From a phage, in the sequence record PZ683264.1: a stretch of 40,794 nt of DNA; one strand, written 5' to 3'. Under the pieces are notes generated by a model. The model did no database searches, was not told the DNA's origin, and saw only the letters and a list, made by a program, of their open reading frames with translations. The position numbers were made by a program, and so were the translations under genes. Positions 20,189-24,736 of this stretch are shown in pieces; within the stretch, counting starts at the first letter, position 1; each line of letters starts with the position of its first letter.

Positions 20189-21700
20189 ATGACTGACATT
20201 AAAGTACATTTTTATGATTTTAGTCACGTGAGAATTGATTGTGAAGAAAGTACATTTCATGAACTCCGTGATTTCTTTTCGTTTGAGGCAGATGGATATA
20301 GATTTAATCCTCGCTTCAGATATGGCAACTGGGATGGACGAATCCGTCTTTTAGATTATAATCGACTTCTTCCATTTGGATTAGTCGGGCAAATTAAAAA
20401 GTTCTGTGATAACTTTGGCTATAAAGCCTGGATTGACCCGCAAATTAACGAAAAAGAAGAATTATCAAGAAAAGATTTTGATGAATGGCTTTCTAAATTA
20501 GAAATCTATTCAGGAAATAAAAGAATTGAACCGCACTGGTATCAAAAAGATGCAGTGTTCGAAGGATTAGTTAATCGTCGTAGAATTCTTAATCTTCCAA
20601 CATCTGCAGGTAAATCTTTAATTCAAGCTTTGCTTGCGCGATATTATTTGGAAAATTATGAAGGTAAAATTCTTATCATTGTTCCAACAACTGCTCTAAC
20701 AACTCAGATGGCTGATGACTTTGTTGACTATCGTTTATTCAGTCATGCAATGATAAAGAAAATCGGCGGTGGAGCATCAAAAGATGATAAATATAAAAAT
20801 GATGCACCAGTCGTTGTTGGTACATGGCAAACTGTAGTAAAACAACCAAAAGAATGGTTCTCACAGTTTGGAATGATGATGAATGATGAATGTCATCTTG
20901 CTACAGGAAAAAGTATTTCATCTATCATATCAGGTTTAAATAACTGCATGTTTAAATTTGGTTTGTCCGGTTCATTGCGTGATGGCAAAGCTAATATCAT
21001 GCAGTATGTTGGAATGTTTGGTGAAATATTTAAGCCAGTAACGACTTCTAAATTAATGGAAGATGGGCAAGTAACTGAGTTAAAAATTAATAGTATTTTT
21101 CTTCGCTATCCCGATGAGTTCACTACTAAATTAAAGGGAAAAACTTACCAAGAAGAAATAAAAATTATTACTGGGCTCAGTAAAAGAAATAAATGGATCG
21201 CTAAATTAGCTATTAAGCTTGCGCAAAAAGATGAAAACGCTTTTGTCATGTTTAAACACGTATCACACGGTAAAGCTATTTTCGATTTAATTAAAAATGA
21301 ATACGATAAAGTTTATTACGTATCAGGGGAAGTTGATACCGAAACCCGCAATATAATGAAAACCTTAGCTGAAAACGGTAAAGGAATAATTATAGTAGCG
21401 AGTTATGGTGTATTTTCTACTGGTATTTCAGTTAAAAATCTGCATCATGTTGTTTTAGCGCACGGTGTTAAATCAAAAATTATTGTATTACAAACAATCG
21501 GTCGTGTATTACGTAAGCATGGTTCTAAAACAATCGCAACAGTCTGGGATCTCATAGATGACGCGGGCGTCAAGCCAAAATCTGCTAATACGAAAAAGAA
21601 ATATGTTCATTTGAACTATCTTTTAAAACACGGCATTGATCGTATTCAGCGCTACGCAGATGAAAAATTCAATTACGTAATGAAAACAGTTAATTTATAA
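20189..21700 (+). CDS. uvsW: UvsW DNA/RNA helicase (SF2)
   Basis: 503 aa; Walker A LPTSAGKS and DECH box (MMNDECHLATG). Confidence 0.9.
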   Translation: MTDIKVHFYDFSHVRIDCEESTFHELRDFFSFEADGYRFNPRFRYGNWDGRIRLLDYNRLLPFGLVGQIKKFCDNFGYKAWIDPQINEKEELSRKDFDEWLSKLEIYSGNKRIEPHWYQKDAVFEGLVNRRRILNLPTSAGKSLIQALLARYYLENYEGKILIIVPTTALTTQMADDFVDYRLFSHAMIKKIGGGASKDDKYKNDAPVVVGTWQTVVKQPKEWFSQFGMMMNDECHLATGKSISSIISGLNNCMFKFGLSGSLRDGKANIMQYVGMFGEIFKPVTTSKLMEDGQVTELKINSIFLRYPDEFTTKLKGKTYQEEIKIITGLSKRNKWIAKLAIKLAQKDENAFVMFKHVSHGKAIFDLIKNEYDKVYYVSGEVDTETRNIMKTLAENGKGIIIVASYGVFSTGISVKNLHHVVLAHGVKSKIIVLQTIGRVLRKHGSKTIATVWDLIDDAGVKPKSANTKKKYVHLNYLLKHGIDRIQRYADEKFNYVMKTVNL

Positions 21701-21712
21701 GGGCTTCGGCCC
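21701..21712 (+). terminator. Hairpin between uvsW and uvsW.1
   Basis: gggc-ttcg-gccc immediately after the uvsW stop; short T-run. Confidence 0.35.
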
Positions 21713-21725
21713 TTTGGAGAAAAAG

Positions 21726-21956
21726 ATGTTACTAGAATTTAAACAATTTCTTTATGAAGCTTCTATTGATGAATTTATGGGTAAAATTGCCTCTTGTCAA
21801 ACATTAGAAGGTTTAGAAGAACTTGAAGCTTATTACAAGAAAAGAGTTAAAGAAACTGAATTAAAAGATACTGATGACATCTCAGTCAGAGATGCTTTGG
21901 CAGGAAAAAGAGCTGAATTAGAAGATTCAGACGATGAAGTAGAAGAAAGCTTTTAA
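21726..21956 (+). CDS. uvsW.1: UvsW.1 small acidic protein
   Basis: Track start 21714 is TTG; ATG at 21726 with GGAGA Shine-Dalgarno gives 76 aa starting MLLEFKQFLYEASIDEF. Confidence 0.75.
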   Translation: MLLEFKQFLYEASIDEFMGKIASCQTLEGLEELEAYYKKRVKETELKDTDDISVRDALAGKRAELEDSDDEVEESF

Positions 21957-22011
21957 ATTAAAAAAGGCCCAACCAAAAAGGAAGGGCCAAAACTATAGAC
22001 TAAAGGTCACA

Positions 22012-22179
22012 CTATAGCAAAAGTTGTGTTTCATTTAATTGTTCTTCCGAACTTTCTGAAACTGGTAGTTCTTTAATGTAATTATAACAAGGCCCAGGAT
22101 GTACAGGACCTTTGTCTGTTTCAACAACCAATGCAGAATCGATTGGAGTTTTACAGACAACACAAATCTTATCTGACAT
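22012..22179 (-). CDS. uvsY.-2: Small Cys-containing hypothetical protein (positional equivalent of uvsY.-2)
   Basis: Hand-translated 55-aa ORF below the 60-aa track cutoff: MSDKICVVCKTPIDSALVVETDKGPVHPGPCYNYIKELPVSESSEEQLNETQLLL; AGGAGA Shine-Dalgarno 6 nt upstream of the ATG. Confidence 0.5.
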   Translation of the reverse strand: MSDKICVVCKTPIDSALVVETDKGPVHPGPCYNYIKELPVSESSEEQLNETQLLL

Positions 22180-22207
22180 GATTGTCTCCTCTGAATTATA
22201 TATCTAT

Positions 22208-22432
22208 TTATACAACTCTCATATGCATATCAATGCCCATATCTTTAGAATAAAAATATTCATCAAGATATCCGGCAAATTTTCCTTTAATATAAAGGAC
22301 ATCTTCACCACACGGGTGGTCGGCCAGGATACGAATATCCTGACGCTTAAGATTATGCTTTTTCATTAAGAATTGAATTTCCGTTTCAAATTCTTCTTCA
22401 TAATTAAAAGCATCATCAATGCTATATCTCAT
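22208..22432 (-). CDS. uvsY.-1: Hypothetical protein (uvsY.-1 position)
   Basis: 74 aa ORF, ATG start, immediately downstream of uvsY on the same strand. Confidence 0.65.
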   Translation of the reverse strand: MRYSIDDAFNYEEEFETEIQFLMKKHNLKRQDIRILADHPCGEDVLYIKGKFAGYLDEYFYSKDMGIDMHMRVV

Positions 22433-22845
22433 TATTTTCCAGCCTCAAATGCCCGCATGTCTTGAATATGCTTAATAGCAAATCCACGTGATTTAATAGC
22501 ATCAAGAGCTCCGCTACAGAAATCTAATAAAATCCCCCAATACTGTAACGAGGTATCAACCTTTAAAACATCCTTATCAGCTGATAAAACTGTCTTCATT
22601 TCTGATTTCTCGTAACGATCCATACTAAATTCATCACCATCTCCTCGTCCCGAGTAGTAGTCTAATCTAGCTTTAAGTGCAACTTTTTTCTGTGCGTCAA
22701 TTCTAAGCATTTCCTTTTTAATACTTGAATGCTTATTAAGCCATTTACTATATAACATCACATTATTAGCTGCTTCATACTGTAATTTAGTCGAATCTAT
22801 AAACACATCTTTCTTCAATTCTTCTTGAAGATCTTCTAATCTCAT
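22432..22845 (-). CDS. uvsY: UvsY recombination mediator protein
   Basis: 137 aa, MRLEDLQEELKKDVFIDSTKLQYEAANN...; MotA-type middle promoter upstream. Confidence 0.9.
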   Translation of the reverse strand: MRLEDLQEELKKDVFIDSTKLQYEAANNVMLYSKWLNKHSSIKKEMLRIDAQKKVALKARLDYYSGRGDGDEFSMDRYEKSEMKTVLSADKDVLKVDTSLQYWGILLDFCSGALDAIKSRGFAIKHIQDMRAFEAGK

Positions 22846-22885
22846 ATTGTTCTCTATTCAATTGTTATTGGATGGACTTAGATTC

Positions 22886-22911
22886 ATTATACCACGTTTA
22901 TACGTGAAGCA
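22886..22911 (-). promoter_or_regulatory. MotA-dependent middle promoter for uvsY (corresponds to T4 oriF)
   Basis: Minus strand reads TGCTTCA (MotA box), 13 nt, TATAAT; about 35 nt upstream of the uvsY ATG. Confidence 0.6.
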
Positions 22912-23310
22912 TTATACCCTATTACTCGAAGCCAGTTGCAGTTTTATCTGCTCAATATCATCAGGGTTATCGATGACCGAAAAGCGTATTTCTACTATCA
23001 GAGTATAATCATCATAAACCGGTATTACATTAACTGCTAATTTATCAATACGTGGCTCATAGTTTCTTACTGCGCTTTCGATATTGCGCTCAACTGTGTC
23101 AGCAGTAAGAGGAGTCATATTTTCAAAAAGCTGGTCTGATAAATCACATCCAAATTCAGGGTCAAACGGTCTTGAACCTTTTCTTGTTGTAATAATTCCC
23201 AAAAGACTGTTTTTAATTGATCTTAATCCAAGTGATCTGGAAACATCTTTGTTCCAATCCATTTTCATTTCCGGGTCAATGTCAGAATAAAGCTTATTAA
23301 TATTTGCCAT
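22912..23310 (-). CDS. 25: Baseplate wedge protein gp25
   Basis: 132 aa; synteny 25-26 divergent from 51. Confidence 0.85.
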   Translation of the reverse strand: MANINKLYSDIDPEMKMDWNKDVSRSLGLRSIKNSLLGIITTRKGSRPFDPEFGCDLSDQLFENMTPLTADTVERNIESAVRNYEPRIDKLAVNVIPVYDDYTLIVEIRFSVIDNPDDIEQIKLQLASSNRV

Positions 23311-23936
23311 TATAGTAACTCAAAGAACTCTTTGAGGCCTCTTATTACATGAGCATGGGTTTTTCCACACTCTGGACACTTAATTGGAACAGCCAAATAA
23401 ATGGTAGGTTTTAAAAGCATATCTTTTATAGCTACAATATCTGACTCTGTGATGATAGAATATAAATCTTCTAGTTCCTTTTCATTTAAGTCTTCAACTG
23501 GAATGCTTTCCCCGTTAGCATGAATCGTTTCTATGCATGATACTATCATGTGGGCTATATTTTTATCATCAAAAATTTTAGGGTAATGGAATTTAATTTT
23601 AATGTCACCCAGTGTATACCAGAGGTCTTCTGGTGCATCTATTTGTGTATGTAATAGATTTATATGGGTTGGTATTTCAGTTCCACAGGTGCACTTCCAG
23701 GAGTTTTCGTGATTAACTTCGCCGAGAGAATGTGCCCATAAATGAATCAACAATAGTTCTGATTCTTGACGGTTTAAATCTTTTGCATTTGTGCAGTCTT
23801 TGATTAGCTTTTTAACAATTACTTCTACAGAACCATTATTTTTGGCAGTAATAAGTTCTAGATATTCTTTAAGCGTGAATGCGCGACAATTGATTATTTT
23901 AGAACCAACTCTCACGTCAAATTTATATTCATACAT
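23310..23936 (-). CDS. 26: Baseplate hub protein gp26
   Basis: 208 aa; late promoter motif upstream on the minus strand. Confidence 0.8.
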
Positions 23937-23957
23937 ATTTAGCTCCTTTATTTATCA

Positions 23958-23969
23958 TATTTATAAATA
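23958..23969. promoter_or_regulatory. Divergent overlapping late promoters for gene 26 (minus) and gene 51 (plus)
   Basis: Palindromic TATTTATAAATA core: plus-strand TATAAATA at 23962-23969 and minus-strand TATAAATA at 23958-23965, each about 20 nt from its start codon. Confidence 0.6.
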
Positions 23970-23986
23970 GAATAAAAGGAGCATCT

Positions 23987-24736
23987 ATGGCAAACATTAT
24001 TCGTTGTAAATTACCAGATGGTGTTCATCGTTTTAAACCATTTACGGTAGAAGATTATCGAGATTTTTTGTTAGTTCGAAACGATATAGAACATCGGTCA
24101 CCACAAGAACAAAAAGAAATAATTACTGATTTAATTGATGATTATTTTGGAGACTATCCGAAGACTTGGCAACCATTTATATTTTTGCAGGTATTTGTAG
24201 GGTCAATAGGTAAAACAAAAGTACCAGTCACATTCGTATGTCCAAAATGTAAAAAAGAAAAGACAGTTCCATTTGAAATATATCAAAAAGAATTAAAGGA
24301 ACCTGTTTTTGATGTAGCTAATGTTAAAATTAAATTAAAGTTTCCTTCTGAGTTTTATGAAAATAAAGCAAAGATGATTACTGAAAATATTCATTCTGTT
24401 CAAGTAGATGAAATATGGTATGATTGGAAGGAAATTAGCGAATCAAGTCAAATAGAACTTGTTGACGCCATCGAGATAGAAACATTAGAAAAAATTCTCG
24501 ATGCAATGAATCCTATTAATTTAACTCTACATATGTCATGCTGTAATAAGTACATTAAAAAATACACTGATATAGTAGACGTGTTTAAGCTATTAGTTAA
24601 CCCAGATGAGATATTTACTTTTTATCAAATTAATCACACACTCGTAAAAAGTAATTATAGCTTAAATTCAATAATGAAAATGATTCCTGCTGAGCGCGGA
24701 TTCGTATTAAAACTGATTGAGAAGGATAAACAATAA
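23987..24736 (+). CDS. 51: Baseplate hub assembly catalyst gp51
   Basis: 249 aa; AAAGGAG Shine-Dalgarno; late promoter upstream. Confidence 0.8.

Follow-up and report, generated by a model that had tools for sequence, protein, structure and literature searches.

The uvsY middle promoter of a T4-like coliphage, a probable orthologue of the T4 replication origin oriF with a single-copy leader repeat

The stretch of phage DNA analysed here (sequence record PZ683264.1; 40,794 nucleotides, referred to as the window) was found to belong to a Tequatrovirus, i.e., a T4-like coliphage. It showed 95–99% identity to about 500 records at the uvsY locus, and a 22-kb stretch of it showed 96.9% identity to RB27, RB32, and RB33. 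At the locus under study, gene 25, encoding the baseplate wedge protein gp25, was located on the minus strand (23310..22912) by the open reading frame list, the Pfam family GPW_gp25 and alignment with T4 gene 25, and ends in a TAA stop codon (22914..22912). It is followed on the same strand by uvsY, encoding the recombination mediator (22845..22432, ATG at 22845; Pfam UvsY, E = 2e-52). The gap between the two genes is 66 bp and corresponds exactly to the interval (22846–22911) for which a preliminary description had proposed a uvsY middle promoter with the architecture of the T4 origin oriF. The helicase gene uvsW is a convergent neighbour on the plus strand (20189..21700; Pfam UvsW_N, ResIII, and Helicase_C), and gp26 was likewise identified by Pfam near the locus. 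The gene order uvsW / uvsY.-2 / uvsY.-1 / uvsY / 25 / 26 is common to the window and T4; neither motA nor asiA falls within the 40.8-kb window. The match proposed in the preliminary description is therefore not one of architecture between distant phages, since the locus is that of T4 itself, carried by a closely related phage.

Besides, the uvsW region of the window differs from that of the T4 reference. Downstream of the uvsW stop at 21700, the window contains a GGGCTTCGGCCC hairpin and then uvsW.1 as an ORF in its own right on the plus strand (ATG at about 21726, to 21956), a layout also present in T2, RB69, S16, and others. In NC_000866.4 (T4), UvsW is annotated as one fused protein of 587 aa; a small indel where the two reading frames meet accounts for the fusion (TTA-ATAAGC in T4 versus TTATAAGGGC in the window; region 21640..21960).

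T4 middle promoters have been described as a MotA box with the consensus (a/t)(a/t)(a/t)TGCTTtA, located 12 ± 1 bp from a TAtaaT −10 element and with no −35 element (PMC2988021). All of these features were found in the gap between gene 25 and uvsY. On the minus strand, the heptamer TGCTTCA (22911..22905) directly follows the TAA of gene 25 and is separated by a 13-nt spacer, CGTATAAACGTGG (22904..22892), from a sigma-70 −10 hexamer, TATAAT (22891..22886), which is preceded by TGG, an extended −10 (TGn) motif. These three elements were as given in the preliminary description. The full 10-bp consensus reads TAATGCTTCA here (22914..22905, minus strand); the predicted MotA site, identical in T4, is centred near −30 and includes the TAA stop, so that the claimed overlap with the gene 25 stop was correct. 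At the −35 position, TAATGC agrees with TTGACA at one base of six, and a generic scan for sigma-70 −35/−10 pairs did not call the site, which is what a promoter lacking this element would be expected to show. No terminator was found in the gene 25–uvsY intergenic region, and an Rfam scan of 21700..24100 showed no RNA family.

The start of the T4 PuvsY transcript was mapped at 115371 (PMC2988021, Table 1), and transfer of this position by alignment predicts that transcription, and with it the presumed primer RNA, begins with an A at 22879 (minus strand; +1). From this transferred start, the uvsY leader would be 34 nt (22879..22846). The distance of about 35 nt to the uvsY start proposed previously therefore fits the transcription start site and not the −10 hexamer, which ends 40 nt upstream of the ATG. 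The site is almost certainly the MotA/AsiA-dependent uvsY middle promoter (PuvsY).

Several other motifs were observed around this promoter. An inverted repeat, CACGT-N4-ACGTG (22906..22893, minus strand), is formed by the spacer together with the final CA of the MotA box (22906..22905). In T4 the repeat takes the form of a 6+6 near-palindrome, CACGTTAAAACGTG; the two genus-wide spacer alleles differ by two substitutions at the centre of the repeat, and the repeat is not kept in other genera. A second TATAAT (22916..22911, minus strand) spans the gene 25 stop, right next to the MotA box (GGTATAATGCTTCA); RB69 has GTGTAAT at this position, showing that it is not conserved as a −10 element. A further MotA-box-like sequence, AAATGCTTAG (22712..22703, minus strand), is located 134 nt inside uvsY and is annotated as ‘mot box’ in M77695. 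This one is probably not a promoter, because no −10-like hexamer is present at the required distance.

Alignment with T4 from −40 to +60 showed that 87 of 90 aligned positions were identical, in addition to one 10-bp deletion in the window. One of the three substitutions affects the last sense codon of gene 25; the other two are adjacent in the spacer, the centre of which reads TATAA in the window and TTAAA in T4. The MotA box, the 13-bp spacing, the −10 hexamer, the start region and more than the first 150 nt of uvsY were shown to be identical to T4. The T4 RefSeq record carries a rep_origin feature at 115321 described as ‘oriF (oriuvsY); (-) strand direction; primer RNA is same as transcript for gene uvsY’. 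This point corresponds to +51 in T4 and to about 22829 in the window. Furthermore, the original T4 deposit (M77695) has a ‘mot box’ and a TATA box annotated at the homologous bases, and a 28-nt stretch is annotated as a promoter in the related phage Lutter. The proposed match to the oriF architecture was thereby extended to a base-for-base alignment with T4 oriF/PuvsY, with a rep_origin feature at the homologous place, and the almost complete conservation gave no ground for rejecting it. The locus is orthologous and syntenic with T4 oriF, lying between gene 25 and uvsY in both phages. The element is already known from its annotation in the T4 reference genome, and at least one closely related phage (Lutter) has it marked as a promoter.

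The 10-bp deletion is located in the leader. The T4 leader is 44 nt and contains two tandem copies of CCAATAACAA, whereas the window lacks one of them and contains, according to the T4 alignment, a single copy (22871..22862, minus strand). Of 500 Tequatrovirus records, 226 contain the exact 80-mer of the window from the MotA box to uvsY codon 3; RB51, AR1, and wV7 are among them. The two-copy form of CCAATAACAA was intact essentially only in T4 strains, RB55, and RB59 (14–17 records), and the T4-type duplication is missing from the window and from approximately 97% of the sequenced Tequatrovirus records. The single-copy leader is thus the majority configuration, and T4 is the outlier. The 10-bp duplication of T4 matters when T4 origin-mapping or R-loop data are extrapolated to T-even relatives, or when these relatives are engineered.

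In T4, the minimal origin of about 100 bp consists of the middle promoter and an A+T-rich DNA unwinding element (DUE), in which the promoter transcript forms a persistent R-loop that serves as leading-strand primer; no particular sequence is required of the unwinding element, and heterologous ones can take its place (PMC3016281). Using the limits given in this review and the RefSeq feature, together with base composition, we placed the putative unwinding element and R-loop zone of the window at +1..+50 (22879..22830, minus strand). Most of it would thus lie in the untranslated leader, with about 16 nt from the start of uvsY added, and not in the uvsY 5′ coding region to which it had been assigned before. 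Both the window and T4 are 70% A+T over +1..+50, and the duplex was calculated to be slightly less stable in the window (−56.7 versus −58.0 kcal/mol; SantaLucia nearest-neighbour parameters, ignoring the glucosyl-hydroxymethylcytosine of T-even DNA). The helical-stability analysis that had been suggested as a check thus gave no argument against an origin: the promoter is followed by an A+T-rich, unwindable element of about 50 bp equal to that of T4, though not an outlier.

On the scale of the whole window, +1..+50 belonged to the 10.6% of 50-bp windows with the lowest stability, and to the lowest 4.5% when 100-bp windows were ranked. A search for stability minima showed the region to be below average and not the window-wide minimum, about 110 non-overlapping 50-bp windows being less stable. 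The measure is weakly discriminating and could not find the origin de novo, and the T4 element would score no better. The energy of the RNA:DNA hybrid relative to the duplex (Sugimoto parameters) was unexceptional, with z of about −0.6 to −1.0. The transcript was shown to be rich in purines: at 72% over 22865..22806, it falls in the top 0.4% when ranked against windows in general. These purines are mostly A, which does not stabilise hybrids, and the richness was given no weight as evidence. GC and AT skew, the latter also suggested previously as a check, followed only the coding strand, i.e., the island of minus-strand genes at 22–24 kb, and showed no independent origin signal.

Among about 500 members of the genus, two alleles of the 34-mer from the MotA box to the −10 hexamer were found, that of the window in 354 records and that of T4/T2 in 121. 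The functional hexamers are essentially invariant (approximately 475 of 500). Beyond the genus, most Tevenvirinae genera also have a MotA-like box that overlaps the stop codon of gene 25, with TATAAT after it. RB69 contains TAATGCTTCA-N12-TATAAT and Gaprivervirus TAATGCTTTA-N12-TATAAT upstream of uvsY, and degenerate forms of the box were seen in Gelderlandvirus, Karamvirus, Jiaodavirus, Marfavirus, and JS98-like phages. The spacer between box and −10 is unrelated in sequence across these genera. No MotA-like box was seen upstream of uvsY in a Krischvirus, a Pseudotevenvirus, a Bragavirus, or a KVP40-type Schizotequatrovirus. KVP40 was reported to lack a recognisable motA, and RB69 and RB51 to carry both motA and asiA (PMC2988021); the 80-mer of RB51 is identical to that of the window. 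This cross-genus pattern and the distribution of motA support a uvsY promoter that has probably been MotA-dependent and conserved for long. In the Pseudotevenvirus Escherichia phage Lw1 (L013, 560..700), uvsY was found to follow gene 24 and not gene 25, with a sigma-70-type TTGACT-N16-TATAAT in place of a MotA-type promoter.

We consider PuvsY and the approximately 50 bp downstream of its start to be the orthologue of T4 oriF, ori(uvsY), and, by this orthology, the locus very probably acts as an oriF origin in this phage as well (probability of roughly 0.8). If the T4 model applies, AsiA would remodel sigma-70 region 4 a few minutes after infection, MotA would bind TAATGCTTCA at about −30, and sigma-70 region 2 would bind TATAAT. 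Transcription would then start at about 22879 and proceed leftward into uvsY, and part of the transcript may anneal to the template in the easily melted, A+T-rich first 50 bp or so, giving a persistent R-loop. The RNA would be processed, with the phage RNase H as the probable nuclease, and leading-strand synthesis would be primed from its 3′ end in the direction of uvsY transcription, while a gp41/gp61 primosome would be loaded by gp59 on the displaced strand. T4 origins are turned off when middle transcription stops and UvsW unwinds R-loops late in infection (PMC3016281). Shut-off could occur in the same manner here, through the end of middle transcription and late unwinding of the R-loop by the helicase encoded next door; uvsW, with its helicase domains, is available at 20189..21700 (plus strand). 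The loss of one CCAATAACAA repeat is unlikely to abolish origin activity, because the T4 element is replaceable and the window version is no more stable. The practical use of this assignment is in annotating the uvsY middle promoter and a probable early origin in this genome on the basis of T4; beyond annotation it adds little.

A chance match of these motifs in A+T-rich DNA, with no promoter function, was also considered. TATAAT-like hexamers are frequent in A+T-rich T-even DNA, as illustrated by the second TATAAT at 22916..22911. The pattern TGCTTYA-N11-13-TATAAT, however, showed a single match on both strands of the 40.8-kb window, where 0.03 were expected by chance (matches in 3 of 100 dinucleotide shuffles); the MotA box and −10 are those of the mapped T4 promoter, they are invariant in about 475 of 500 genus members, and the architecture is kept across genera though the spacer diverges. 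The shuffles, the T4 identity and the genus-wide invariance effectively refute this explanation, which we regard as having a negligible probability. A stronger alternative is that the site is a promoter that drives uvsY and nothing else, the shorter single-repeat leader giving no persistent R-loop and no origin use. Conservation of the promoter cannot prove origin function, because the need for uvsY expression fully accounts for it. Plasmid-replication and initiation evidence for oriF comes from T4 alone (PMC3016281), and no report of oriF activity in other phages was found in the literature searched; Petrov et al. (2010) do not deal with origins. The form tested experimentally contains the two-copy repeat confined to T4 strains, RB55, and RB59; helical stability and hybrid energetics are not distinctive; and T4 has several redundant origins (PMC3016281), so that the loss of one would be tolerable. 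Against this, the T4 unwinding element lacks a sequence requirement and can be swapped for heterologous ones (PMC3016281), and +1..+50 of the window is as A+T-rich as in T4 and slightly less stable. We therefore regard a promoter without origin use as unlikely, though deserving consideration. Still less probable, in our judgement, is the related proposition that the two-unit CCAATAACAA form of oriF, the subject of 40 years of study, is a lineage-specific oddity of T4 and that the single-unit form has a different origin strength or is inactive. If it were true, oriF usage would be a variable trait within Tequatrovirus.

A further explanation keeps the origin and attributes R-loop or primer formation to a sequence-specific element at −6..+9, and not to A+T-richness in general. 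Across 14 lineages from several genera, the positions −6..+9 around the start of the uvsY transcript (22885..22871 in the window, minus strand) contained 0.93 bit per position, compared with 0.38 in the spacer and 0.44 further downstream, with the consensus GGTTTTAGGTCCTTT. The T4 experiments in which the unwinding element was exchanged could have overlooked a determinant in this segment. The lineage of T4 and the window, the one for which origin activity is proven, nevertheless strays furthest from the consensus (GAATCTAAGTCC), and the DUE was replaceable in the T4 experiments (PMC3016281). The conservation could reflect a constraint on the promoter discriminator or the start site, a function of the mRNA 5′ end, or origin function; discriminator, start-site choice, promoter escape or an mRNA 5′-end function can each account for it. 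A sequence-specific element at −6..+9 is thus considered very improbable, and an orthologue of oriF with a generic A+T-rich unwinding element remains the preferred reading.

Among known systems, the closest is T4 oriF itself, or ori(uvsY) (Kreuzer & Alberts; Menkens & Kreuzer; Carles-Kinch & Kreuzer; reviewed in PMC3016281). The window and T4 share the gene 25/uvsY locus, the MotA box, the 13-bp spacing, the −10 hexamer, the A+T content over +1..+50 and a nearby uvsW, and they differ by the two spacer substitutions, the gene 25 codon change and the leader of 34 nt versus 44 nt. T4 oriG, or ori(34), has the same organization, with a MotA middle promoter (P34i), a downstream A+T-rich element and an R-loop primer, but it is located inside gene 34, outside the window, and is reported to have little sequence similarity to oriF (PMC3016281). 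The MotA/AsiA middle promoters of T4, of which about 60 have been mapped and which operate by sigma appropriation, have in common with the site a box 12 ± 1 bp from an excellent −10 and no −35 element. PuvsY is among these mapped promoters, and together with P34i it drives the two origins (PMC2988021); most of the others are not origins, these two being the only ones known to prime replication. More distantly, the ColE1 RNA II system, E. coli oriK (constitutive stable DNA replication), and the mitochondrial heavy-strand origin also use an R-loop transcript as leading-strand primer, an analogy drawn in PMC3016281, although their sequences and proteins are unrelated. ColE1 needs a folded RNA II together with host RNase H and Pol I, whereas an origin of the T4 type needs no more than a promoter and an unwinding element and employs the phage replisome.
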